Of a DNA stretch of 34,729 nt, positions 16,667 through 32,123 are shown piece after piece. The first letter of the stretch is position 1, and each line of letters begins with the position of its first letter. This DNA is from a virus. Taxonomy: Duplodnaviria > Caudoviricetes. The DNA lies in the IMG/VR virus record IMGVR_UViG_3300014656_006071, positions 1 through 34,729 of that record; one strand, 5' to 3'. The translations under genes were made by a program, and so were the position numbers. The notes below the pieces were generated by a model. It had not been told where the DNA came from. It made no database searches and saw only the letters and a program-made list of their open reading frames with translations.

Positions 16667-17076
16667 TCGCTACATCCTTTAATTCTTATAGCAGCCGCCA
16701 CGCCAAAAGCTATAGTATCAAGAATATTATTCCTGGCAGCCTTATAAGTATTTTCGAACACCATTACAAATAATCCATCTATATCCTTAATAGTTACCTT
16801 GTCTTTGTTAAAGAATTCCTTTAGCTCAGCTCCTCCCCTAACTTGAGAAAGATCGATTTGCCTATTCTCCCACTTTCCTAGAATATAACCAGTAGCTATC
16901 CTTGTCTTCTTTAGAGCACCGATTATAGATAACACCGCCGTCACCTTGGTATATATTGGAGTCTTAACATATATAGGAGACTCAATGAATTGACTTAGCG
17001 GAGCAGTCGGTTCAATCTCTTGTGGTTCAGCTACGAACTCTCTATCTAATCTATCGGGATAAAAATCGTCTGCCAT
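16663..17076 (-). CDS. Hypothetical protein
   Basis: 137 aa. Its GAGGT RBS lies within the 3' end of the terminase gene. Confidence 0.6.
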   Translation of the reverse strand: MADDFYPDRLDREFVAEPQEIEPTAPLSQFIESPIYVKTPIYTKVTAVLSIIGALKKTRIATGYILGKWENRQIDLSQVRGGAELKEFFNKDKVTIKDIDGLFVMVFENTYKAARNNILDTIAFGVAAAIRIKGCSE

Positions 17077-18931
17077 TACCTCTCCAAGATGGTAAACCTC
17101 GTGGTTCCCTTCTGCCCAAGGTATTAGACCTCGGTTTTCCCCAGCTTCCTCTCGGAATTATTGCTCCCCATTGTGAAATATTATCTTCTTTTTCTGGCTC
17201 TGGCTTCAATCTAGACCGCTCATATTCTGGCATAGGCACAAAGAATGCGGCGGATGTGAAGTCAGGGCGATTGAATCCGAAGTGATGTATCATTACAGCA
17301 TGAAGAGCAAGGATAAGGGCATCATGTGCATCATCTGATACAATTGAATCAGCGGAATATACTGGGCGCCCAGAGTCGGCATATCTCTTTACATAGTATC
17401 CAGAAAGTTGGGCACGAAGACCCCTCGCGAATTGCCCCTGAACAACTCTACCATCAGATAATTGTATAGGTTTATCGCTATAGCCATCTCTACATCCAAT
17501 AATTCTGCCATTTTCCATAGTTTTGACTAAATTATTAACCATCCATGGCTTTATAGGACCAGAGGTTAAATCCATTGTTATAGCATCAAAGTATTCTAAC
17601 TTATCACTAAAACTAATACCAACAACTTTGTCTGTCAATCCACCTTCTGGATGGATATTGCCATAGATATGTAACTGCTCAATCTGTGATTCGCCCGCGC
17701 CACGATCACAGAATATCCAGTGTGGTCTAAAGATTTCATTGATCTGAATAATCTTATCTATAGCATGACTATATGTAAGTTCACCTTCCTTGCCAGGAGG
17801 CAAATTTTCCCTGAACCTAATGACCACTTTGTCGAGTATAGGATCAACTTCCAGACCTATTATCTCAGGACCAACACTATATTTATTCCAATCTACACCG
17901 ATGGTTCTACAAGGAGAATTTAGATTAGGAGACATCGAATATGTATAGTTAGAGAGTTCAGAATCAAACATCATAGAGATATAGAATTCCTGATAAACGC
18001 CTCCTTCTAGTTCTCCCCAATCTGCTTCGACCTCGTGAACCCATTTTTCGGTGGTTAATTCTCTGCGCAACGCCGCCTGTGTATCATCATCCCATGCGGG
18101 CCCTATATCTACGTCTGCTCCATTCTCTATAGCCCATTCTTTATACAAATTCGCGGCCATTTCTCTAGAATAATAGAATTCTTTATATTCGACATCATTA
18201 CAAAGATTATAGAAATGAGAACGCGCGCCAGAGGGTGTGCTAGACACTATGACATCAACATTTAATTCAAGTATAATGGGGATGGCAGCGTCAAACATGG
18301 TAGGATCCATATAATCCATCTCGTCAAATATCATTAAGACTCTTCCTGCTGTAGCATTGTCGGCTCTCTTTTGCTTAGCACCAAAACCACGGACAGCTCT
18401 CGCCGTACAGAAACCTCTAATGGTTGATCCGTTAGAGAAGCCTAACTCATGTGGGCGACGCCTATCTGGCTCTGTTTTTACATCCATAGTTGTCAGCATC
18501 GGCCTAAGCTTATCATCAAAGAGCTGATCTAACTGCGATTCTCCTGGGCCTATAACGAGAACAGTTGCCCTTTCATTTGTGAGAGCAGTATGTAATGCTA
18601 TCCAAGACAAGATCATACTCTTGCCAGTTCGTCTGGCAAATCGTAGAGCTAATCTTTTAGGACCGGGATTTATAGAATACCATTCAGATTGACAAATAGG
18701 ACAAATATCGGGAGGTTCCTCGTATCTCTGAATCTGTTGCTCACAGTCAAGATTCGAACATCTACATCTTTTTGGCGCTTGATGCTCTAGCACATTTACT
18801 TGATGGGGCCAAGGACGCATGTTAATCTTATCTTCTACCCATCCAGTTATATCATCAAGGAGGCGAATCTCTTTGGTGAGGCGTTCATTATCAGTTGGGG
18901 GGAGATAAAGGCTATTATAAAGCTCATCCAT
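17051..18931 (-). CDS. terL: Terminase large subunit
   Basis: Q motif 'PWPHQ', Walker A 'ARRTGKS', Walker B 'LMIFDE', coupling motif 'SSTP', nuclease motifs 'IGVDWN' and 'DDAHDA'. Confidence 0.93.
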   Translation of the reverse strand: MDELYNSLYLPPTDNERLTKEIRLLDDITGWVEDKINMRPWPHQVNVLEHQAPKRCRCSNLDCEQQIQRYEEPPDICPICQSEWYSINPGPKRLALRFARRTGKSMILSWIALHTALTNERATVLVIGPGESQLDQLFDDKLRPMLTTMDVKTEPDRRRPHELGFSNGSTIRGFCTARAVRGFGAKQKRADNATAGRVLMIFDEMDYMDPTMFDAAIPIILELNVDVIVSSTPSGARSHFYNLCNDVEYKEFYYSREMAANLYKEWAIENGADVDIGPAWDDDTQAALRRELTTEKWVHEVEADWGELEGGVYQEFYISMMFDSELSNYTYSMSPNLNSPCRTIGVDWNKYSVGPEIIGLEVDPILDKVVIRFRENLPPGKEGELTYSHAIDKIIQINEIFRPHWIFCDRGAGESQIEQLHIYGNIHPEGGLTDKVVGISFSDKLEYFDAITMDLTSGPIKPWMVNNLVKTMENGRIIGCRDGYSDKPIQLSDGRVVQGQFARGLRAQLSGYYVKRYADSGRPVYSADSIVSDDAHDALILALHAVMIHHFGFNRPDFTSAAFFVPMPEYERSRLKPEPEKEDNISQWGAIIPRGSWGKPRSNTLGRREPRGLPSWRGNGRRFLSR

Positions 18932-19940
18932 TGTCTGCTTTTAACCTCATCCTTTCTAGAACACCTAACGAGGTATTAAAATCAGCAACTACGGCTTCTC
19001 TATCTGAGAACTGCTCAAGAATTAATCCTGCATCATCAAGTCTCTTAGATCCTTCTTTGTCAATAAATGTCATCATCTTATGTCCCGCTTGAGGCAAGAC
19101 TGGCCTCGTGCCAAACTTTTCGAATGTCGCCGCTATATGGTCTCTCTTTTCCTGTAAGAATCGAGTGACTTCTTGAAATTCATCTTTATCATCTACCAGC
19201 CACACCAGCGCCGCAGCTAACTTCGGAGGATCAATTTCTCCCATACTTAACTTTACCATTACATCTACGATATCCATAGCCTCGCTATTAGGAGAAAAGA
19301 GATAACATAAATCATATGGCTGTATAGACATTGCCAAGGCAAGGGAAAATAACGTGATGTGATTCTTATAGTATTTACCTATATGATTATATATTCCTTC
19401 ATAGATAATACGATTCATAGTATCATCAGTGAAGACTACACAATTGTTAGCCTTAAATATCTTGGCGAGTTCTGCCATCTTCTTACCAGAGGCCAGCATT
19501 CCGAATGGTTGCGATGGATTATACATAAATATAATATCGCTAGGCTGAATAACCTTCTTGAGTTCTTTAGTGACGAAGAAACCATCCTTACCAACTGGGC
19601 AGGTATTCATTTCAAGACCGATGTGTTTCGCGCGCAACAATATGTCTTCGTGAGCATACTCAGGAAAGATTATTCTCTTATGGTCCATAACTAGATAATT
19701 TAATGCCAAGAAATAACCCTGTATCTTCCCATTAACAAGCGCGATATTCGCCGCACCATATTCTCCTCTAATAGAGGATGTCATATCTGGTAGGTCATAT
19801 TCTGATAGAAGTTCTGCGAGCTGAATATCGAATCCTTTACTAGAACGAACACTAACCCTTTTGACACATCCAAGAACCTTGGCGAGCGCGGGGTCAATAG
19901 GAATATCTAGGACTGGGTTTACGAGATCTAACTTGGACAA
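18924..19940 (-). CDS. Degenerate class I/II PLP-aminotransferase-fold protein (catalytic Lys absent)
   Basis: Colinear AspC-like motifs: 'NIALVNG', 'IIFMYNPSQPFG' (cf. NPxNPTG), 'VFTDDTM' (cf. DExY), 'FSLAL...PYDLCY' (cf. SFSK...GWRxG) and 'EKRD...G...PQAG'. TTG start with AGGAG. Confidence 0.75.
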   Translation of the reverse strand: MSKLDLVNPVLDIPIDPALAKVLGCVKRVSVRSSKGFDIQLAELLSEYDLPDMTSSIRGEYGAANIALVNGKIQGYFLALNYLVMDHKRIIFPEYAHEDILLRAKHIGLEMNTCPVGKDGFFVTKELKKVIQPSDIIFMYNPSQPFGMLASGKKMAELAKIFKANNCVVFTDDTMNRIIYEGIYNHIGKYYKNHITLFSLALAMSIQPYDLCYLFSPNSEAMDIVDVMVKLSMGEIDPPKLAAALVWLVDDKDEFQEVTRFLQEKRDHIAATFEKFGTRPVLPQAGHKMMTFIDKEGSKRLDDAGLILEQFSDREAVVADFNTSLGVLERMRLKADNG

Positions 19941-19955
19941 TATAAAGCTCCTTAA

Positions 19956-20381
19956 CTAGTAGGGATTTAATCTATTATGCATAATTTTTCCCTCATTCTG
20001 CATCACAGATCTGAGAGCCATTTGTGTTCCTTGCATTATCTGAACCGAGCGCTGCCTCATAGTAGAAGCGGCATCTGAATCTATATATAGTTGATTAGAG
20101 TATGCTTTCATTGAGAACTGACGACTCATCTCTACATTAATGCGCCCTGTTTCCCACGCGGCTTGTCCTATCCCTGCGGCGATCTGAACTCCTATTAAGG
20201 GCCACAATAGACTAGGAACAGCTACCTCCATTAAGACCCAAGGAGTAGACCTTGCAAGGGCGCTCGTTAGTGAGACGCGTTCTCCTGCGAGAGCTCCGAT
20301 ACCTAGTTCAAATGCACCAAAAGTTGCATATTGTCTGCCTATAGTCTGTAATGTTATCTTAGCGGCAGAATTAGCTATCAT
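19956..20381 (-). CDS. Hypothetical virion protein with hydrophobic segments
   Basis: 141 aa with Ala/Gly hydrophobic stretches and a C-terminal 'TMRQRSVQ...RSVMQNEGKIMH'. GAGGAGGAG RBS. Confidence 0.65.
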   Translation of the reverse strand: MIANSAAKITLQTIGRQYATFGAFELGIGALAGERVSLTSALARSTPWVLMEVAVPSLLWPLIGVQIAAGIGQAAWETGRINVEMSRQFSMKAYSNQLYIDSDAASTMRQRSVQIMQGTQMALRSVMQNEGKIMHNRLNPY

Positions 20382-20968
20382 CTAACTCCTCCTCGAGACC
20401 TATGACTACCTAAGACTATGTCTCCTGTAGCCCCCATCGTTGGCGCGCGCGACACGGAACTCTGTAATGCCGAAAAGTCATATGAATCATCAACACCTAC
20501 AGTCTGAATGCGCCGATCTCGCGCAATACGATTCCTTTGATACTCAGCACCTATAGTCTGATTATATAGAGGAATAGCGACGGCACTAGTGAGTATGGCA
20601 CTCCTGGCCCACATCTCAGCACGTGGAGTCATAAAGGCTCGATGTGGCAAAGCACTTTCTATAGAACCAGGTCTCCTAACAACTTTAGCTGCCTTAGGAT
20701 CCCAGGCTAGATGATGCGAGCGACCAATACGACCAGACATAAATCCGCGCCGACCAAATCGTCCTCTGGTAGCCCTTTCTCCTGCCTCTTTGAACAACTG
20801 AGTAGGAGCGAAGGCGCCAAAGCCAGCACCAAGGACAGCAGTTCCCCAAGGATTCTGTCCTGTAGCCTCACCAACAGCATAGCCGAGCGCGCCAAAGCCC
20901 ACCATACGCATCAAGGGCTTACTCGTTAACTTACCCATTCCTGCGAGAAAAGTGTGCATTCCTGGCAT
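20378..20968 (-). CDS. Gly/Arg-rich hypothetical protein with glycine-zipper segment
   Basis: 196 aa. 'GFGALGYAVG...AVLGAGFGA' segment and C-terminal 'MGATGDIVLG'. Confidence 0.65.
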   Translation of the reverse strand: MPGMHTFLAGMGKLTSKPLMRMVGFGALGYAVGEATGQNPWGTAVLGAGFGAFAPTQLFKEAGERATRGRFGRRGFMSGRIGRSHHLAWDPKAAKVVRRPGSIESALPHRAFMTPRAEMWARSAILTSAVAIPLYNQTIGAEYQRNRIARDRRIQTVGVDDSYDFSALQSSVSRAPTMGATGDIVLGSHRSRGGVR

Positions 20969-20971
20969 TTA

Positions 20972-21616
20972 TTACCTCATAGAAGGCCAGTCGTGCATTG
21001 ATACGGCGTTAATTACATTGCCTTTCCCTTTCGCTAATACCCTTCTGGAGCCTCCGATTGTTTCCATACCAAATAATCCCATAGTCTCGCCTCCGCCAGC
21101 ATATACTCGAAGATTTTTCCACGTTGCTTCATCTATAGCACGAGCACCATAGCCGGGCATATTAATATATGACGAGGGGGGACCAGGAGACCTGTATACT
21201 TTTTCTAAGACTTGCATTGGCATCCCTGGAGCTCTAGAACCTGCACGCATACCTGCTCCGTGAGATATGCGGTTTACCGGCGCTGACAATCCTCTAGGAC
21301 GAAGCGCCGCTCCAGGAGACATAATCTCTTGCATAACTCTTTTGCCTGGAGTTGCCATCCTAGCCCGATGTTCAGCAAATCTTCCCATAACATCACTTCG
21401 GCGCATACCCCTGAGGCCCTGTCCGCCAAGATAGCCTATACCACCGTACAGCGCCGCACGAGATGCTCGGTCTCCCATATCATCGCCAGTTAGGAATCCA
21501 TACGTTGCTCCTATACCTGCGCCATAGCGCCCCATAAATTTAGAGGCACCACGCATTCCCCTTGGAGAAAATAATGCGTGACTAGCCACTTCCATACCTG
21601 CTCTAACATTTACCAC
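20972..21616 (-). CDS. Gly/Arg/Met-rich hypothetical protein with glycine-zipper segment
   Basis: 214 aa, basic and low in complexity, with 'YGAGIGATYG...ALYGGIGYLGG'. Confidence 0.65.
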   Translation of the reverse strand: MVNVRAGMEVASHALFSPRGMRGASKFMGRYGAGIGATYGFLTGDDMGDRASRAALYGGIGYLGGQGLRGMRRSDVMGRFAEHRARMATPGKRVMQEIMSPGAALRPRGLSAPVNRISHGAGMRAGSRAPGMPMQVLEKVYRSPGPPSSYINMPGYGARAIDEATWKNLRVYAGGGETMGLFGMETIGGSRRVLAKGKGNVINAVSMHDWPSMR

Positions 21617-22074
21617 TAGAATCTATCCCCACCCGTATATTCGTGTCTTAACCTAACATCCACATACATCCCTATGAACGGCGATGTCCCTGTAGATACG
21701 AGACAGAATGGTCCGTATATATCATATGGCCCTGTCTCAAATGAATCATTTAATCTTAGTCTTATATACCAGCATCCATCAGTGATGCCGTCCGCGGCGT
21801 AGTCCCAGGCCATATCGTAATGTTGTATGCCCGCGGGCCACGTGCTAGATATCCCCGTCGTTAGTCCAGAGGCTGTGGCGTTGTTCCACGGCCCCACGAG
21901 GGCATCGCTATATTGAAAATCGGCGCCGGTAAAGGAACACACATCATCATCTGTATCTATCGCATAATATAATAAGTAGGCATAGTCAGCGATGTTAACA
22001 TTGGCAATGTTGACCTCGGGAGGGTCGTTGGCACCGAAACGGCCGACCATACCTGCTAATCCAAAACCCCTCAA
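21616..22074 (-). CDS. Small Ig/FN3-like beta-sandwich protein
   Basis: 152 aa. The pattern 'NDPP...D.DDD...FQYS...W...WD...WYIRLRLND' is typical of Ig/FN3-like modules. Overlaps the glycosyltransferase stop. Confidence 0.55.
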   Translation of the reverse strand: MRGFGLAGMVGRFGANDPPEVNIANVNIADYAYLLYYAIDTDDDVCSFTGADFQYSDALVGPWNNATASGLTTGISSTWPAGIQHYDMAWDYAADGITDGCWYIRLRLNDSFETGPYDIYGPFCLVSTGTSPFIGMYVDVRLRHEYTGGDRF

Positions 22075-24833
22075 GCAATTACCCCCAGTCGTTCATAATT
22101 GTCGGCATATTCTTCAATAGCATTGATTACATCTTCTACACTTATAAGTCTCATCTTATCATTAGGAACATTCTCATTCCTTAGCCACTGAATATTAGGA
22201 TCGGGAATGCCTTTGCAGATATTGATGTTAGTCGGATAGCCAAACAATGCTGGATTCGTGCTACCAAACAATATTATAGCCTTGGTACCAAATGCGTGAG
22301 CCGCGTGGCCCGCCCAAGTATCAACACTAATAACAAGCGATGCGTGCTTCACGAGAGCAATGGCATCTAGGATATGGGTAGTGAGAAACTGATCTGTTCC
22401 AAGATCTGTCTCTTGCCCCTTCACGCCCAACTGATTCACTTGATATCCTCTTTCCTTCAATGCCCTAATGAGTGCGCGCCACTTTTCATCTTCCCAGTCC
22501 TTATATGTACTAATCTTACCGTGCGCCGTCACAGCAGAGTAAGGAACAATGAGACATAATGGGCCATCGGCGCTGGCAACAAATTCCCTTGCTCTATCCT
22601 CTCTCCACTGAGGAATGAAGACGCTATATCTCTCGTCATCATCGGTGAGACCATATTCATCGTACCATAATTGTCTTAGGTGCCTTTGGCTCTGAGACTT
22701 AAATCCTCGTTCATATACATTTACAGGATGTTCAGATAAATCCGATACTACTTCTAATGGCCAGAAGACATCTATATTAGGATTGCCGTGTAGTATGTCC
22801 TCAGAACTCGCGCCCACCACAATCTGCTTATCGGTAGATTTCCTCAATGCCTGAAGCATAGCAGTAGTAGCAATATGGTCGCCAACGCCAGCAAAGATAG
22901 GCACAAAAATCTTGTCATCATCGTTGCGCACCAGTTCCTTCACTCTTTCCCAGAATAACTTATCGTCTTCTGCCCACAGACTACCAGCAGGATTATTGCT
23001 TCTGATGCCTCCACTGGGAGACTGGAAGTGCCAGGTAACAATATCGGTATCAACTATAAGTTTATAGCCAGCGTGGAACATTCTGTATGTAAAGTCGGTT
23101 TCTTCACGATGGCCAACTCTGGAATATCCTGTGAAATATCCTCCTATCTCTTGGGCCACAGATTTCCTGAACATAAACGAACTGGTGAGATGCTGGACTT
23201 CATAAGTACGTGCCGCCTGATTAAAGTGTTGTATGTGTATAGGTGGCCCCATTGCCTTTGCGACGAACTCGGCCTCATCATTGAACTCGGGGGAACTAGG
23301 AGCCATTACAAGACCGCCAGCGGCGGCTACCTTTGGGTCTTTGAACTGCTGTACGAGTTTCCCTATTGTCTGTCTCTCAGGATACTCATCATCGTCAACT
23401 CTTAGTATAAGTTCCGACTCGGCTAACTGTAGCCCCATCTGATGCGACCACTGGGGGCCCTTCTTCTTACCAAATACAACCTTCCATTGTATATGTCGGC
23501 GGTCTAACAATGCCAACTGATGCGCCAGCAATGGAATAGTTCGTATATCTTGAGCATCATCAGTGTCATCTATAATTATAATTGAGAAATTATTATATGT
23601 CTGCCGTGCCAGCGCCCCTAACGTATGGCTAAGATAATCATATCTATTCCTCGTTGGGATTACTACTGTCACGTGTGGATTCAAATATCTATCCTCCAAT
23701 ATCTTTGAATTCCTCTCAAATATCTTTCCCCATTCCTCGACTCCAATCTCACTATGCATTGTGGCTTCCCCTTCGTGATATATAGGGAAGTTGCCTATGA
23801 CATATTTGTCTTTACCACCGCTGATTTCTCCTGCTTGTGCGAGACGATAACCTGCCTTGACGGCCTCTATTGAAAAGCTAGTATCGTCGCCCCCTCCTTC
23901 CTTAAAACTTTCGTCCAATAGACCTACCTTATCAAAAACCTCTCTCTTTATCATAGCACAGAAGAATATAATGAAATCGTGATCGGTATGCGAGCAATGA
24001 CCAAGAGTTGGCCCTACTATGCCAACGCGCGAATCTTTCGCGAAGGGCTCTCTCAACATAGAGATCCAGTGTTCTCCAGTTATCTCTGTATCGCTATTCA
24101 GAAGAATTATATATTCTCCATACGCTTCGGGGATAGCGACATTATTGGCGCGCGCGTAGCCTAACGGCTCATCATATATATAAATTCTCTTAGTATATTC
24201 TTGCTGTCGTATCCAGTCGTTAGTCTCATCATTGGAACCATTAGAGACGATGAGGATCTCATAATCTTCCTTCGTATACTGTTTGATAGATGCGAGACAC
24301 TTTTTGAGCCATTCAAGTTGATTATATACAGGTATGATAATAGAATAGGTCGGCCCTGGCTTATACGCTATAGTTTTGGTACACGTATCTGTTATGTCTG
24401 GCATATTTGTAGCAGGTTGTGATGAGATATTAACAAGACCAAGGGAAGATAATATTTTTTCTATTTCGTCGCCCCACCAGCACCAATAATGTTGGTGACC
24501 TGGCCAAAGGGGAGTTCCAATCCAATTATGTATTAATCGATGCCGACGTGCGGGTTCATTAAGCCAAACTCTACACGTTTTTTCAGTGTCTGGATAAATT
24601 AATGTTAAAATCCCACCAGGACGAAGAACTCTAATCCATTCGGTAAGAACCGTTACGGTTTCGTGTGGCGGAAAATGCTCTATTAAATGAGACGCAAAAA
24701 CCTCTATAGCAGAACAATCATCGAAAGGGAGATACCGAGCATCGGCTTTCACATCGGCTTTTTCGCAATGAAGATCAACATTAATATAATCTTTTTTTAA
24801 GTCCTCACCACATCCAACGTTAAGTCTAATCAT
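22071..24833 (-). CDS. Four-domain SAM methyltransferase - GT2 - GT2 - GT9 fusion protein
   Basis: MTase domain, aa 1 to about 157 ('RLNVGCG', 'ASHLIEH', 'RVLRPGG'). First GT2 ('SIIIPVYN', 'LLNSDT', 'GGGDD'). Second GT2 ('TVVIPTRN', 'RVDDDE', 'REETD'). GT9-like GT-B domain ('GVGDHI', 'KDW', 'ISVDTWAGHAAHAFG...LFGSTNP'). No transmembrane segment seen. Confidence 0.9.
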   Translation of the reverse strand: MIRLNVGCGEDLKKDYINVDLHCEKADVKADARYLPFDDCSAIEVFASHLIEHFPPHETVTVLTEWIRVLRPGGILTLIYPDTEKTCRVWLNEPARRHRLIHNWIGTPLWPGHQHYWCWWGDEIEKILSSLGLVNISSQPATNMPDITDTCTKTIAYKPGPTYSIIIPVYNQLEWLKKCLASIKQYTKEDYEILIVSNGSNDETNDWIRQQEYTKRIYIYDEPLGYARANNVAIPEAYGEYIILLNSDTEITGEHWISMLREPFAKDSRVGIVGPTLGHCSHTDHDFIIFFCAMIKREVFDKVGLLDESFKEGGGDDTSFSIEAVKAGYRLAQAGEISGGKDKYVIGNFPIYHEGEATMHSEIGVEEWGKIFERNSKILEDRYLNPHVTVVIPTRNRYDYLSHTLGALARQTYNNFSIIIIDDTDDAQDIRTIPLLAHQLALLDRRHIQWKVVFGKKKGPQWSHQMGLQLAESELILRVDDDEYPERQTIGKLVQQFKDPKVAAAGGLVMAPSSPEFNDEAEFVAKAMGPPIHIQHFNQAARTYEVQHLTSSFMFRKSVAQEIGGYFTGYSRVGHREETDFTYRMFHAGYKLIVDTDIVTWHFQSPSGGIRSNNPAGSLWAEDDKLFWERVKELVRNDDDKIFVPIFAGVGDHIATTAMLQALRKSTDKQIVVGASSEDILHGNPNIDVFWPLEVVSDLSEHPVNVYERGFKSQSQRHLRQLWYDEYGLTDDDERYSVFIPQWREDRAREFVASADGPLCLIVPYSAVTAHGKISTYKDWEDEKWRALIRALKERGYQVNQLGVKGQETDLGTDQFLTTHILDAIALVKHASLVISVDTWAGHAAHAFGTKAIILFGSTNPALFGYPTNINICKGIPDPNIQWLRNENVPNDKMRLISVEDVINAIEEYADNYERLGVIA

Positions 24834-25599
24834 TTATATGTCCAGTATGTTTTAGGATACTAGCCATATGTTCAAACCAAGAATTTCTATCCATATCTCT
24901 TTTCATCCAGTTACACTTTGCGCAACAAGGAACTACGTTATCTATTGTATATCCTTTAGTATTATCAACACGATCAAGACCTTGACAAACATAATCTCCA
25001 TTATTGTGTCTGGCTTTAACAATATTTAACGGAGGACTTCCACAATAATAACAATTCTCTTGGGTAAGACATGTGAATTCAATTTCATCTATTTCGAAAG
25101 TATAATCAAGAGACTTTGCTCGTTTCTTATAATCTCTCATTCTATGTCTTATCGACGCTTGTCCTTTTAACAGGCGACGGTTATCTCTAGCAAAACACCC
25201 ACAACTAGAGGTATGACCAGACCGAAGATGAGAGGCTCTTACCGTAGTAAAATTTCCACACCCTCCTAAAATGGGATCACAAAGGCAACGCCAATAAATA
25301 CTAGACGACGGATGCTTCCCCCTCTTTATAACTTTAAGCCTCCCGAAGGTTTGTCCAACAAGATTTTCATTGCTTCCCCGTTTCGTGCGGGCTATGTTGA
25401 TATTTCGTCTCGCCAATTCTTTGCTAAGACATCCACAACTTTGAGTATGACCACCCTTAAGATTACTTCTATTTGTAATCTTTGTATTTCCACAGTCGCA
25501 CTGGCATTCCCAAAGCATTGCTCCATTTTTAGAGCCAATTCTTCGCAACGCTTCTAATCTTCCAAATCTCTGTCCTGTTAAATCTATGACCTTACTCAA
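24826..25599 (-). CDS. Free-standing HNH homing endonuclease
   Basis: Two N-terminal repeats of 'LxGQxFGRL...WxCxC...CGN...L..GHT.SCGC', then a His-Me finger 'CYYCG...GLDRVDNTKGYTIDNVVPCCAKCN'. TTG start. Confidence 0.88.
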   Translation of the reverse strand: MSKVIDLTGQRFGRLEALRRIGSKNGAMLWECQCDCGNTKITNRSNLKGGHTQSCGCLSKELARRNINIARTKRGSNENLVGQTFGRLKVIKRGKHPSSSIYWRCLCDPILGGCGNFTTVRASHLRSGHTSSCGCFARDNRRLLKGQASIRHRMRDYKKRAKSLDYTFEIDEIEFTCLTQENCYYCGSPPLNIVKARHNNGDYVCQGLDRVDNTKGYTIDNVVPCCAKCNWMKRDMDRNSWFEHMASILKHTGHIND

Positions 25600-25642
25600 A
25601 TTCAGTACCCCAAATTCAAACGAAATACGTTCTCCATTAATA

Positions 25643-25671
25643 ATTATACCATATTATGGGTGCATTGTCAA
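25643..25671 (-). promoter_or_regulatory. Consensus sigma70/SigA promoter with extended -10
   Basis: The minus strand reads TTGACA (25671-25666), 17 nt, TATAAT (25648-25643), with TG-n directly before the -10. It lies in the 74-nt gap upstream of the HNH gene. Confidence 0.88.
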
Positions 25672-25673
25672 GA

Positions 25674-28600
25674 CTAACTAATCCTATGGACGGTCAAGTA
25701 CGTTGCTTGAGATATACCAGATATATCTACTGCATTGTCCCCAGAAACAGACAATGCATAGAGTTCTATATAGTCGGTAATGCCATTACAATAGATAACA
25801 TCGGTAGCCTGAACTGTTAAGGCAGCGGCTAACGATGAGTGAATATGATTATCTGTTACAAGGGCTCCATTCTTATATATAGCACAGGCATATCTTTTAC
25901 CTACTACTATACTAGAGCCAATAAAATTAACTGAACCTACTACTAGGTAGTATCCTTCTACATTTGGCGTACAACGATACGTGCCAGTATCGAATATCGC
26001 TGTAATATCATATGTTTCTGTATCTAGCTGGACCTGCGTCCAAGTATTATTAACGAGATTTAATTGATTGCTACCAAGATAAGCTCTACATTTAGGTCCT
26101 ATAGTTGCGCCACTGAACCCAGATACACCAGAGAATCCAGATGTACCAACAGGAGCGAAGCCAAATCCTATGTTGTCATCATTAGACAAGCTTCCATTAT
26201 GTGCTTGATATGTAATAGAACACTTATAATACGTTACTAAATTAGTGACAACAGTAAGCTTATAGTGCACGAAGACAGACGGATCTGATTCTTTGAAGAT
26301 TCTTACACTATCTCCACTTTTAAGCTCCGCAAGTACAACTCCTACACTAGCCGAATTCCTATCGGTAGTGCTAATTGTTATATTACTAACAATCAAGGGA
26401 TTTGCATTATCAAATTCTATGTGCCCCGCCGCGGGGGGCTCGGATGTATCTGTTGAGAACTGATAGAGTAATGTCCAGCCACCAGTAGAACCCATCGATC
26501 CACTGTATCCAGAGAGGCCACTAAATCCGCTTATACCAGAAAAGCCTGAAATACCTGAGAAACCTGAAATACCAGAATATCCACTAAAGCCTGAATCTCC
26601 AGTAGCACCCGTATCTCCGCTATAACCACTTGTGCCAGAATATCCTGAGATACCTTCCGAACCGGTTGCACCAGTATCTCCAGAATAACCCGAGATGCCC
26701 GAGTACCCACTAATCCCCGAGTATCCTGATGTACCAGTTGCCCCAGTATCACCCGTGGCCCCTGTGGCCCCAGAGTAACCTGAGATGCCAGAGTATCCAC
26801 TTATTCCACTATAACCGGAGATTCCAGAATAACCTGACGTTCCTGTAGCGCCTGTATCGCCAGTTGCCCCCGTGGCACCAGAGTACCCGCTGATTCCTGA
26901 ATAACCAGATATGCCTGAGTAACCTGATACCCCTGTGGCTCCAGTAGCGCCGCTGTATCCGCTTATACCACTGTATCCAGAGGTTCCAGTAGCACCTGTA
27001 TCTCCTGTGGCTCCTGTCGCACCACTATAGCCAGATATACCACTATATCCTGACGTTCCTGTGGCCCCGGTATCACCGGTAGCTCCAGTAGCGCCCGAGT
27101 AACCTGAAATTCCTGAATAGCCAGAGATACCAGTGGCACCGGTATCACCAGTAGCACCTGTGGCCCCGCTATATCCGCTTATGCCAGAGTATCCTGATGT
27201 CCCAGTGGGACCAGTTGGACCTTCTGGGCCTGTGGCACCGGAATAGCCACTAATTCCAGAGAAACCAGAGTACCCAGAGATTCCTGAATAGCCTGAAGTG
27301 CCTGTTGCACCATCTGCACCATCTGAACCATCGGTACCTGAGTAACCACTTATACCAGAATAACCGGACGTGCCAGTCGGTCCAGCACCGCCGGTTGCAC
27401 CGCTATATCCACTAGTTCCTGAATACCCCGAAGTACCAGTTGCGCCAACTCCACCAGAGTATCCAGATATACCCGAATATCCGGATTGACCGGAGTACCC
27501 CGATGTGCCAGCTCCTTCTGGGCCTGTTGCGCCAGAGTACCCTGAGATACCCGAGTATCCGCTTACCCCAGAGTACCCGCTGGTTCCGGCTCCAGAATAA
27601 CCAGAGACTCCAGAGTAGCCTGAAATGCCACTGTAGCCAGAGGCACCATCGTTTCCGTCGGCACCAGAGTATCCACTAAATCCTGAAGGTCCACTATAGC
27701 CAGAGAATCCTGAGGGCCCACTGTACCCAGATGTACCTGTCGCGCCGGTGTCGCCCGTTGCTCCAGTATCGCCAGAATATCCAGAAATTCCGCTGTAGCC
27801 CGAGATGCCACTGTATCCGCTAATGCCTGAATATCCAGATTCGCCAGTAGAACCATCGGTACCAGAATAACCAGATATACCGCTATATCCTGAGTATCCG
27901 CTTGTTCCTTCGCCCGAGTAACCTGAATAACCTGATGCTCCAGGACCACCAGCGATTGCAGAATACCCTGATAAGCCAGAGTAACCACTGGGACCTGAAT
28001 ATCCACTATAACCCGAATAACCAGACCAACCACTAGTGCCAGAGTAGCCACTTGTGCCCTCTATTCCATCTTGTCCACTGAATCCTGAGTAGCCAGATAT
28101 TCCTGAATCACCCGTGGCGCCATCTTCTCCTGAATATCCACTGTATCCAGAAGTTCCCTCTCCACTATATCCGGAGTAACCTGAAGTACCAGATTCTCCT
28201 GAATAACCGCTAAGCCCCGAATCTCCAGAATAACCACTATAGCCAGAGTAACCGCTTACACCTGAATACCCGGAGAAACCAGAAGTTCCTGGTCCACCAG
28301 CTGCCGCGGAATAACCAGATAAACCTGAATAGCCCGAAATCCCACTGTATCCACTCGGTCCGGAGTAACCACTGAAACCTGATGTACCAGTATCCCCAGT
28401 AGGACCAGAATAACCTGAGTAACCAGAAATGCCACTATAACCGGATGTTCCGCTGTATCCTGAAATACCAGAGACTCCGGAATACCCAGATTCTCCAGAG
28501 TAGCCACTAATGCCGGAATAACCCGATGTACCGGAAGCACCTGTCGCAGCAGAATATCCACTAGTGCCACTATAACCAGACTCTCCTACTCCGTCAGATC

Positions 28601-31600
28601 CACTATACCCAGAAAGACCAGAAAAGCCAGATATTCCAGAGTATCCGCTGGTTCCAGTTCCACCAGTTTCGCCACTGTATCCACTCGTTCCTTGTTCACC
28701 ACTATAACCACTCTCCCCCTCTCCGCTATAACCAGAATATCCTGACGTACCTATGCCTGAATAACCTGAAGCGCCATCTTGTCCGTCTTCACCCGAGATG
28801 CCACTGTATCCAGATATGCCGCTGTAGCCAGATTCTCCAGAATAACCACTTGAAGCGGCGGCGCCTGGCGTACCAGAGTAGCCAGAATAACCAGAGACAC
28901 CTGAGGTTCCCTTAGGGGCCCATCCAAAGCCTACGAAGTCACCATCGGCGAATGAGCCATTATGTGTTAGATATGTAACAACGAATGTATGATAGTTACC
29001 ATTATCTATATTCGAAGTTACGTTAAATATAATATAATTGTATGCTGCGTTCTCGTCAAATATTCTTATTTTATCGCCAGCAACAATTGCATCAAGAACT
29101 GGATCTGTGAATCCAGAGAGACGATCTGTATCATAAACATATATCTCAGTGACGAGACCATATGTAGCACTATTAAATTCAATCTCTCCAGTGAGAGGAC
29201 TTTCATCTATATCATCACTGAATATATATAGAAGCGTCCAGCCGCCAGTATCCCCACTGTAACCGCTGATACCAGAAATGCCAGAGAAGCCACTGTAGCC
29301 AGACCTTCCAGAGAAACCAGAGATACCAGAAGGACCTTGAGGACCGGCGTCACCAGTCACTCCGCTAAAGCCAGATATACCGCTATATCCACTTATACTA
29401 CTATAGCCAGACTGCCCAGAGTATCCACTGAAACCAGAGGTGCCTTCACCACTATAGCCAGAGATACCAGAATGACCAGAGACTCCTGAATACCCAGAGA
29501 TACCAGAATCTCCAGAGTAACCGGATATACCCGATTCTCCTTGTTCCCCACTGTAACCAGAGATTCCACTATATCCGGAGACACCAGAGTATCCAGATGT
29601 ACCTTCGCCAGAATACCCTGATTGACCAGAATACCCACTGAAGCCACTATAGCCAGAAGCTCCGCCGGGGTCTCCGCTCTCTCCACTATATCCTGAATAT
29701 CCTGATGTACCAGGAGAATCTCCACTATAGCCAGAGAATCCACTATAGCCACTCAACCCAGTATCGCCAGCACCAGAATATCCTGATTGACCACTATACC
29801 CAGATGAACCTATGCCACTATAGCCACTGGTTCCTTCACCGGAATAACCACTAGCACCCATGGCGCCACTATAGCCAGAAATACCAGAGTATCCACTTAT
29901 ACCATATTGTCCGGAATATCCGCTAGTGCCAAACTTACCCGAGTATCCAGAGAGACCACTGTCACCGGTTTCTCCACTGTATCCAGACTGTCCGCTATAT
30001 CCAGAGGTACCCTCTTCTCCACTATAACCGGAGTGACCAGAATAACCCGATTGACCCGATTGTCCTACTTCTCCGCTATAGCCCGATTGTCCTGAATATC
30101 CACTGAATCCTGAAGGTCCTTCTGGTCCATAGTCTCCGCTATAGCCACTCTGGCCGGCGGGACCACTATAACCAGAGTAACCCGATTGACCAGAAGCTCC
30201 TACTCCGCCAGAGATACCAACATACATACTGTCATTTGTGGCAGATGTAAATATTCCTGATATTCCGTATACACCAAAGCGCGCATCAACAGGCGTAACT
30301 GTTCCAGTGTCAGCATCAACGTGTTCTAATCTATACTCATATGCTGTATCTATTACGCTAATGTAGCCCGCGGGCATTAGTCCATTTTGTGTATCGTCAG
30401 CCTCACGAATCGCCGCTGAGTGTTCGGCTTCTGTTAGGTGGTATTGCTCAGGAGGAGGCCCAGATGTTCCACCTTGGACGTTTGACAGCGCCCAGTGAGA
30501 CATCATACCGCCAGTCGGCCCCCAAACACTAGTTTCATCTGAGTAAGAATAATGAACTAGTTCATCATATACCCAGGTAGTCATACCATCAAGAGGAGAG
30601 GTATAACTCCAAGTGCTATTGTCCCATTCGGCTACTTCATTATCATGCCCAGACCAGTCGCCAGTAGCACCACCGGGGGCTGAGGCAGCACCAATAGACC
30701 AGAACGTAGCATTATCAGATCTATTATTATGCCACGTAATATGGTCATCATCGCCCCACGCCTCATCAACTACAAAGAATTCCCTAATTGTACCAGTAAA
30801 ATATTGACCAGATGCCGTACCATTATCAAAATCTTTTGTATTTCCTCCGGTATATGCTAATCCTCCATCGCCGGAATGAGCATTGATAAAATCAGTAGTT
30901 GCATGGGCATCCTCGGCATCCATTTCTACGCCATTGACATATAATTTATATTCGCCAGGATAGGCATATGACATTGTTACATAATATATGGTATTAATGG
31001 AAATATTTCCATTAGAGTCTACACCCGGCGCCGCACGATCGGTAACTAGATAGTCACCAGACCATCCTTGGCTCTCACTCCACCATCTAGCATATATTTT
31101 GTTATTACGTATATAAAGGAGGCAACCATTGACGTTGCCACCTTCGGCCAAAATGGTTTGTCTGGTGATTATATCTGAACCAGTCTCAAATATAAAGTTA
31201 TGTGTTCTAATAGACCATTGCTGTTCTAGATATGCTATATCTTTTAGATTCCAGGCATCGTTTCCATCATAGGCTATACCGAGACCATAGGTGCCGTTAT
31301 CAGCCGCGGGATCACTTACGATGCCGTATATATTACGAGCATATGTAGTGCGATCGTCGCCAGCGGTATCCATATGATAGAATAGCCCATAGGTAGAGGG
31401 ATATGTCGATTCGGGTGTATTGGTAGCATCGTTAGTAGAACTATAATACATATAGATTGTGTACGGGGCATCAGCATCTAGAGAAGGTACCTTGACACGC
31501 GCTACGAACACTTGTCCAATAGGATCATATATTTCAATGTCATGATGAATTCTGGTATAGCCATCAGAGTCGGTGAATAGAATATCTCTACCGTCATTCT

Positions 31601-32123
31601 TGGCATATGTAAAGAGATGATCTACCCCGTTTATTTCAACCGAGAGAACGACATTTGTATCATCCGCCGAAACCTTGGTATTATCGGTTGTCAATCGGCG
31701 ACGTATATACCATGCTGAGTTATACCAGTTAGCACTAGGAGCAATGAGATATCTGTCTCCAGTAGAAGGAGACACAGGAGGAGACGAGAGGTCTTTATCA
31801 AGGACAGGATCGATCCAAACTATTGCGCCACCGGCGCCCTGCCCCCAAGGAGCATAGATACCATCATAGTTAATGGTCGCAGTAGAATCGGTAATAGCTA
31901 GTACATCATTACGCACTTGGAGAACGCGGGCTAGACCAAGGGGATCACCATCAATTTCCCTGAAAATAATCTCTGGATTAGTTATTGAAGCCACGGAGGC
32001 ACTCAATAACCAGACATCATAATCCATAGCTGGCCACGTATTAGAGACGAGGGTATCTCCCCAACCCGTAGATGATACAGGATGGGGAACAGTCCAAGAC
32101 ATATATACCGTGGAAGATACCAC
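25674..32123 (-). CDS. Giant collagen-like fibre protein (split DUF2793, DUF2341/LamG, Gly-X-Ser repeats, C1q-like C-terminus)
   Basis: 2149 aa. DUF2341-like '[12 protein letters not shown]...KVPSL...IYMYY' followed by a LamG-like domain. Two G-X-Y tracts, two 112-aa paralogous domains, and a C-terminal C1q/TNF-like '[18 protein letters not shown]...IYKNG...DYIELY'. Confidence 0.88.
26484..28910 (-). repeat. Coding Gly-X-Ser/Thr collagen-like tract 2 (aa about 1072-1880)
   Basis: Same triplets, plus higher-order units such as [24 protein letters not shown] repeated towards the C-terminal end. Confidence 0.9.
29247..30218 (-). repeat. Coding Gly-X-Ser collagen-like tract 1 (aa about 636-959)
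   Basis: Translation is dominated by [18 protein letters not shown] triplets, with 9-nt periodicity and degenerate codons. Confidence 0.9.

Follow-up and report, generated by a model that had tools for sequence, protein, structure and literature searches.

A candidate phage-encoded O-glycosylation system for Gly-X-Ser collagen-like fibres

The virus record IMGVR_UViG_3300014656_006071 (34,729 nucleotides, analysed as a whole and called the window here) encodes a collagen-like fibre dominated by Gly-X-Ser triplets and an enzyme that combines a methyltransferase (MTase) domain, two glycosyltransferase family 2 domains (GT2a and GT2b) and a GT9 domain. Judged from sequence and genomic context, this enzyme probably O-glycosylates the Y-position serines of the fibre in the host cytoplasm via its GT2b-GT9 core, with extension of the glycan by GT2a and possibly a methyl cap. 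That the phage is likely to sugar-coat its own fibre follows from the association of the enzyme family with neighboring Gly-X-Ser repeats in numerous different phages, one of which is cultured. The enzyme domains, their intact catalytic motifs, the lack of a clear membrane helix and the specific pairing across phage types were observed in this analysis.

Virion glycosylation and collagen glycosylation are each already known separately. Glycosyltransferases of the mycobacteriophages Che8, Corndog and Myrna modify virion proteins, with capsid and tail tube as targets (Freeman et al. 2023 via PMC12363180 and PMC12619734). SgtA acts on the collagen region of Clostridioides difficile BclA3 (PMC7157674), and threonine glycosylation has been named as a collagen-stabilizing mechanism (PMC3368898). 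By analogy, the proposed system would work like SgtA-BclA3 and mycobacteriophage virion glycosylation. No published work on Gly-X-Ser phage collagens or on this gene cassette was found in a literature search whose coverage excluded subscription papers.

Pairing of the enzyme family with Gly-X-Ser collagen

Searches of viral contigs with the single enzyme sequence or with the major capsid protein returned no relatives, and an alignment-based search was needed. A protein search gave 159 matches. Of the 120 that were listed, about 80 have GT2a, GT2b or both in common with the enzyme, combined in shuffled domain orders, and a single one, P0002 (46% identity), aligns with the entire enzyme and is the closest full-length homolog. 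Three sets of viral loci were then screened with profiles built from these matches.

In the forward test a GYS-type DNA pattern yielded 152 loci, of which the 79 with flanks (59 contigs) were used and the 73 without flanks were dropped. The pattern also admits threonine and thereby supplied an internal control, with 32 contigs carrying a true Gly-X-Ser repeat and 27 not. GT2a or GT2b (at least 100 bits) was located within 10 kb on 20 of the 32 Gly-X-Ser contigs but on none of the 27 others (Fisher p 1.1e-7, a value that overstates the significance because the contigs are not independent). A Gly-Pro pattern served as a second control and gave 127 loci, 80 of them with flanks (77 contigs); the enzyme family was found within 10 kb of Gly-Pro collagen on none of these 77 contigs. 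The co-occurrence of GxS fibres with glycosyltransferase and methyltransferase genes, put forward for checking in the original prediction, was therefore recovered against both controls. Searching whole records, which covered 29 of 40, raised the Gly-X-Ser count to 21 of 32 and produced only two weak partial matches in 16 non-Ser records.

The reverse test started from the best 80 of 628 enzyme matches, corresponding to 72 loci. Gly-X-Ser collagen was present in the locus in 34 cases and elsewhere on the contig in 6 of the other 38, resulting in 40 out of 72, and Gly-Pro collagen in none of these loci. For the GT2b loci of this enzyme scan the proportion was 38 out of 63. Collagen and enzyme genes were on the same strand in 49 of 50 cases, with a median gap of about 1.5 kb. 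None of 32 ordinary GT2 loci of cellular genomes had such a collagen, which is a weak control because these loci are not viral. Among fibres of the repeat scan that share a globular insert (M) with the window's fibre, the cassette was found on 8 of 9 Ser-type contigs vs none of 6 non-Ser contigs. Thus, the link tracks the serine repeat and not fibre ancestry. When GT2b was clustered at 60% identity, 22 of 29 clusters included a Gly-X-Ser contig, in a set partly selected on the repeat. As the contigs are related and mostly fragments, the association is strong but incomplete. Tyrosine was rejected as the acceptor, since Gly-Tyr-Thr collagens lack the cassette and GFS, GIS and GWS freely substitute for GYS.

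The cultured example is Methylophilaceae phage P19250A (KX815270.1, complete genome), the only one of 50,697 phage records matched by GT2b in a tblastn search. Its genes gp23 to gp26 encode, in a row, a collagen, an MTase, GT2b fused to the N-lobe of GT9, and the GT9 C-lobe. The product of gp23 (L396:21390-24995; 1201 residues) contains 281 triplets with 80% serine at Y. It is annotated as "tail length tape-measure protein" and gp24 to gp26 as hypothetical; elsewhere in the P19250A genome another gene, gp15, has a tape-measure annotation. By its sequence, gp23 is a Gly-X-Ser collagen. P19250A shares with the window a Gly-X-Ser collagen with an M insert and, after it, an MTase, GT2b (35% identity at 96% cover) and GT9. 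Unlike the window, P19250A has no GT2a, its MTase is of a different type and has a gene of its own, and its GT9 is split over gp25 and gp26, the halves (L396:25632-27040) overlapping by 4 nucleotides. Because P19250A is cultured and carries this minimal cassette, the proposal is testable, and one virion preparation would be enough to address it.

Other cassettes are located amid genes for a T4-like neck and sheath or in portal-protease-capsid modules; nucleotide-sugar epimerase genes adjoin several of them (98 open reading frames (ORFs) from 30 loci). In cellular genomes of 185,579 species, GT2b reached at least 100 bits at 8 loci, all on metagenome-assembled contigs, of which 3 adjoin Gly-X-Ser collagen. 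A metagenome scan gave mainly weak methyltransferase matches, with GT2b only in L436, the locus of P0002, and with collagen at none of the 75 other loci. The number of matching viral stretches is estimated at about 1200 for the enzyme patterns and about 1600 for the repeat pattern.

Enzyme core and serine-rich repeat

The description of the enzyme as a soluble four-domain methyltransferase/glycosyltransferase was upheld by its Pfam domains (Table 1), including PF00535 in two stretches of the GT2 regions (E 3e-43), and by the motifs N246-S-D248 and D480-D481-D482. The highest 19-residue hydropathy is 1.48, hence there is no clear membrane helix. The suggested modelling of all four domains gave the GT2a, GT2b and GT9 folds, with predicted local confidence (pLDDT) mostly above 85 over residues 160-635; the fold is confident except for the methyltransferase domain.

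Both GT2 domains show conserved DxD-type and acidic motifs and a GT-A fold (Z about 19-20 to SpsA, TarS and 6P61). In 79 GT2b sequences DDD480-482, R576-E577-E578-T579, H602 and GGIR are nearly all invariant. In one fold search the top matches of GT2b are polypeptide GalNAc-transferases (Z 22.1, root-mean-square deviation (rmsd) 2.9, 233 residues aligned, 14% identity), only marginally ahead of other GT-A enzymes (best GT2, Z 20.8). A lectin domain, as in the GT27 comparison, was not recognised in the enzyme.

The GT9 domain matches PF01075 (E 2.4e-13) and aligns with 3TOV over 257 residues (rmsd 3.8). G649-x-G651-D652 is found in 76 of 79 sequences and K778 and H843 in all 68. K778, D838 and H843 align with the C-lobe of WaaC, and we assume for them the roles of the equivalent WaaC residues. 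Lipopolysaccharide (LPS) heptosyltransferase-type enzymes are nearer to this domain than TibC is, both in fold (Z 19.4 for 3TOV, 17.4 for HepII and 16.1 for WaaC vs 15.0 for TibC) and in sequence (E 3.6e-9 for WaaC vs 0.005 for TibC). Membership in the BAHT group (TibC/AAH) was rejected: TIGR04414 is absent among 25 of 34 NCBIfam matches listed, the C-terminal stretch of GT9 has one Cys where that group has iron-finger cysteines, and TibC ranks below WaaC-type enzymes. TibC/AAH (PMC4358343; PDB 4RAP) nevertheless resembles the proposed system in its GT9-related GT-B fold and in the cytoplasmic serine O-glycosylation of a repeat protein; an N-lobe Asp is its catalytic base (PMC4358343), and an Asp is conserved in the window's GT9. 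It differs in that the window's GT9 is closer to 3TOV, HepII and WaaC and is fused to GT2 domains. A "phosphoheptose isomerase" on L184 (PHROG), considered as support for a heptose donor, was discarded as unconfirmed by Pfam.

GT2b and GT9 are constant across loci; GT2a is present in 0-5 copies per locus and the methyltransferase type of the window in 22 of 72 loci. From these sequence comparisons, GT2b and GT9 form the constant core, and methyltransferase and GT2a are variable accessories. The original prediction of a methylated oligosaccharide on the fibre is partly supported, by the co-occurrence of the enzyme family with serine collagen and by the minimal cassette of P19250A; the methyl group and the GT2a-dependent extension would be accessory features.

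In most loci GT9 is split: of 82 (two contigs being counted twice), 70 have it on two genes, 4 have the fused form seen in the window, and in 8 the C-lobe was not seen. In the split form the N-lobe is fused to GT2b, and the C-lobe has an ORF of its own, about 150-170 residues long. The halves lie at most 100 nucleotides apart in 58 of 68 cases, usually touching or overlapping, and both retain the conserved residues. The two chains likely reassemble, and a frameshifted fusion may also occur. One family member of about 2500 residues (L187:9968-17467) combines in a single ORF five GT2 stretches, three of GT17 and several of methyltransferase type.

The fibre, which had been described as carrying hundreds of Gly-X-Ser/Thr triplets, indeed has 361 Gly-X-Y triplets in runs of at least 5, with serine at Y in 263 and threonine in 49. 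This corresponds to a hydroxyl residue at Y in 312 of 361 triplets, combined with a dedicated glycosyltransferase by genomic linkage, as in the SgtA-BclA system. GYS occurs 119 times and is encoded by 38 different codon strings, indicating that the repeat is kept at the protein level. Proline is found in only 19 triplets, and the repeat consists of 34% Gly, 25.5% Ser, 11% Tyr and 1.8% Pro with near-zero Lys/Arg. The long Gly-X-Y runs match PF01391. The trimer-type terminal domain is assigned as C1q-like from language-model features alone (ESM Atlas feature score 0.96; 25 of 30 matches are clusters with C1q in 26-49% of members). A Pfam C1q match was not found for this tip, its single-sequence fold had a pLDDT of 35.6 and was not usable, and a homolog search gave 2 proteins only. 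The second globular insert, M2, is also homologous to inserts of GPX/GXT fibres.

Proposed mechanism and competing explanations

In the proposed mechanism the fibre would be a trimeric virion appendage with about 325 nm of repeat if triple-helical, calculated from the collagen rise per residue. The constant GT2b-GT9 core would add the first sugars. GT2b is the somewhat better candidate for the peptide-priming domain, and GT9, by analogy to TibC, is a serious but less probable one. GT2a would then add further sugar and the methyltransferase would cap the glycan, both steps varying between phages like O-antigen. Fibre threonines may be glycosylated as well. Sugar donors would be drawn from host pools, because no sugar-synthesis gene was recognised on the contig fragment. 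Such a coat could stabilize and solubilize a proline-poor repeat almost free of Lys and Arg, and mask the fibre or tune its adhesion.

More tentatively, and in our estimate with less than an even chance, unrelated environmental phages may share a modular O-glycosylation line for "serine collagen". It would comprise a new priming GT2, convergent on eukaryotic polypeptide GalNAc-transferases, a mostly two-lobe GT9 and interchangeable GT2/methyltransferase modules, which would decorate hundreds of serines in each chain with a glycan specific to the phage, sugar replacing proline as the triple-helix stabilizer.

The nearest known parallel, SgtA-BclA3 and the Bacillus exosporium protein BclA (PMC7157674, PMC8968730), shares a dedicated glycosyltransferase and an O-glycosylated collagen-like repeat, and a similar trimer-type tip is suggested here. 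The acceptor there is threonine in a spore protein, in contrast to the Ser-dominated, Pro-poor repeat of the predicted phage fibre. Mycobacteriophages likewise use phage-encoded glycosyltransferases, and differ in their capsid and tail tube targets from the fibre proposed here. Chlorovirus PBCV-1 A064R is also a virus-encoded multi-domain glycosyltransferase plus methyltransferase, and mimivirus L230 is a case of virus-encoded collagen glycosylation (PMC9614988). However, A064R completes a capsid-protein N-glycan and has a GT34-like first domain, and L230 acts on hydroxylysine (PMC9614988). In PDB sequence and fold searches with the enzyme, neither protein was among the matches listed, and A064R and BclA are analogies only.

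Several observations weigh against glycosylation of the fibre by the enzyme. Gly-X-Ser collagen is missing from 25 of the 63 GT2b loci of the enzyme scan, most of them short or incomplete. G014 (62.5 kb, 77% complete) has a whole cassette and no collagen anywhere on the contig. L436, a 10.5-kb contig, has no collagen, with only 1.2 kb visible upstream of the cassette, where a cut-off structural-looking non-collagen gene with 22% Ser/Thr is located. Conversely, 11 of the 32 Gly-X-Ser contigs were without a cassette in the whole-record search, all at most 52% complete and 5 ending within the collagen, and on four of them no glycosyltransferase was found among the 104 ORFs scanned. In the window itself, GT2b deviates from the family consensus at a few sites, e.g. 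H536 for Trp, and its fused form falls in a divergent clade with P0002, P0008, L168, L356 and L202 (support 97 in a quick tree). A wider fold search placed GalNAc-transferases level with ordinary GT2s (Z 20.3 vs 19.9). Fibre and enzyme may not be co-transcribed, because a consensus promoter separates them (Table 1). It is the sole exact match in the window, with 0.03 expected by chance. Such a promoter could allow production of the enzyme ahead of the fibre or independently of it, although it may simply belong to the HNH element.

Some exceptions bear on the range of such systems. The L202 protein (contig L410:1-4934), of GT4-GT2a-GT4-GT2b architecture, abuts a Thr/Gln (GVQ/GxT) collagen, and no GT9 match was found in 80,000 of the 80,185 bases of the contig. 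This pairing of GT2b with a Thr/Gln collagen in the absence of GT9 was counted both as support and as a counter-example. One cassette-free Gly-X-Ser contig has sugar-pathway genes. Another (L421:5724-8272) encodes two PF11397 GlcNAc-transferases, candidates for a replacement initiating enzyme. At L298:6619-18973, two Thr-rich collagens (GST/GPT/GET) flank a 948-residue MTase-GT2-TPR-GT9 protein that is unrelated to GT2a and GT2b, a possible parallel system for threonine collagens. The notion that Gly-Pro fibres are without any glycosyltransferases was abandoned in view of this enzyme. Downstream of P0002, L436:3997-5214 encodes a protein with a kinase-like N-terminal domain and a methyltransferase-looking C-terminal half, presumably reminiscent of O-antigen chain terminators.

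The alternative that survives best, although we consider it unlikely, is a virion glycosylation enzyme that acts mainly on structural proteins other than the fibre (capsid, tail tube or Ser/Thr-rich decoration proteins), the fibre being at most one target. Mycobacteriophages set the precedent for other virion targets (PMC12363180, PMC12619734), several structural genes of the window encode 12-17% Ser, and the G014 cassette without collagen and the position of P0002 behind a Ser/Thr-rich non-collagen gene would fit. Why the cassette accompanies collagen of the Ser type, but not of the Gly-Pro or Gly-Tyr-Thr type, is left unexplained by this alternative. Moreover, GT2a, GT2b and GT9 had no mycobacteriophage match in the tblastn search, which remote homology could escape.

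A little less probable is a role in superinfection exclusion, in which the enzyme would modify the host envelope (LPS, teichoic acid, S-layer or capsule) and would have been passed on together with the fibre in a host-range island. This is the usual published reading of phage glycosyltransferases beside fibre genes (PMC7029224), and it agrees with the similarity of GT9 to LPS heptosyltransferase-type enzymes, the consensus host-type promoter upstream and the kinase-like protein after P0002. However, it offers no reason for the serine specificity, the window has no membrane anchor or GtrAB-type partner, and the same minimal cassette is found in unrelated phage types, with close homologs nearly absent from cellular genomes.

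Marginally behind it, and improbable as well, is hitchhiking: fibre and cassette would move together on one mobile module, the fibre not being a substrate of the enzyme, or the enzyme would produce a free glycan to which the aromatic-rich fibre binds. HNH-type genes interrupt several cassettes, and each gene was found without the other on some contigs. Yet the pairing persists despite wide variation in the order, spacing and fusion of the genes and in the accessory domains, and extends over most GT2b clusters of the partly repeat-selected set. Glycosylation of phage DNA bases, a common role of phage glycosyltransferases (PMC10202952, PMC12619734), is very improbable, as genes for base hydroxymethylation or replication were not recognised on the contig, the annotated genes around related cassettes mostly have structural or sugar-pathway functions, and the collagen linkage would go unexplained.

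If O-glycosylation of the fibre by the enzyme is true, virion self-glycosylation would not be confined to mycobacteriophages and giant viruses but would be common among phages of aquatic and groundwater habitats. Many phage glycosyltransferases to which a DNA- or LPS-modifying role is currently ascribed would be reassigned. The cassettes would also be a source of soluble, lipid-carrier-free protein O-glycosyltransferases, of a naturally split GT-B enzyme and of proline-poor collagen chemistry.

Gene arrangement in the window

The window is an entire virus record, and the called genes lie on its minus strand. Pfam and PHROG matches identify terminase, portal, protease, major capsid and tail sheath genes. 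The major capsid protein shares 29-36% identity with its counterparts in Bacillus phage 0305phi8-36, Moorella phage MTATph1 and relatives, with 6 of 8 matching records covering most of it; by this sequence similarity, which does not identify the host, the window is a 0305phi8-36-like myovirus.

All three ORFs of the fibre-HNH-enzyme unit were found where the original prediction had placed them, confirming that a single HNH gene, likely a mobile insert, separates fibre and enzyme. The start of the enzyme gene overlaps the end of the HNH gene by 8 nucleotides. The claim that the enzyme lies inside the morphogenesis block was only partly right: the unit is co-oriented with the block but located at its upstream edge, before and not among the terminase, portal, major capsid and sheath genes, about 3 kb and five genes ahead of the terminase (17051-18931). 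Contigs from three additional public runs, belonging to two additional studies, cover the enzyme gene and the 3'-end of the fibre gene, mostly at 99% or more, and contig X2 of one such run spans enzyme, HNH gene and fibre tip. Hence, the arrangement is no assembly artefact. The sequencing-run search listed no RNA dataset.

Table 1. Features of the fibre-HNH-enzyme unit (positions in the window)
Feature	Position	Strand	Evidence or remark
Fibre, Gly-X-Ser collagen-like, 2149 aa, proposed acceptor	25674..32123	-	PHROG tail-fibre matches fall on repeat
Fibre N-terminal region, residues 1-635	30219..32123	-	DUF2341 and DUF2793 stretches
Repeat block 1, residues 636-962	29238..30218	-	mainly GYS/GIS/GFS
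Globular insert M1, about 109 aa	28911..29237	-	40% identity to M2
Repeat block 2, residues 1072-1883	26475..28910	-	GYS/GIS and GAT/GDT; longest unbroken run 114 triplets
Globular insert M2	26148..26474	-	homologous to P19250A gp23 insert, E 7.7e-17
C-terminal tip, likely C1q/BclA_C-like	25674..26099	-	language-model features
Predicted sigma70-type promoter, TTGACA-17-TATAAT with TG	25643..25671	-	12/12 match; between fibre stop and HNH start, directly upstream of HNH and enzyme genes
HNH endonuclease	24826..25599	-	PHROG 374, E 7e-41
MTase-GT2a-GT2b-GT9 enzyme, soluble, 920 aa	22071..24833	-
Class I methyltransferase-like domain	24360..24833	-	Pfam PF08241 (Methyltransf_11, residues 25-77), E 1.5e-7
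GT2a, GT-A fold	23679..24356	-
GT2b, GT-A fold, constant core	22929..23678	-
GT9, GT-B fold, constant core	22071..22922	-	Pfam, residues 772-867

Two further observations concern the region between the enzyme and the terminase. A class I/II aminotransferase-like gene with weak matches only (18924-19940, minus strand) is located just upstream of the terminase. The stretch 19956-21616 (minus strand) holds three small basic Gly/Arg/Ala-rich ORFs without Pfam or PHROG match, which possibly encode internal virion proteins.

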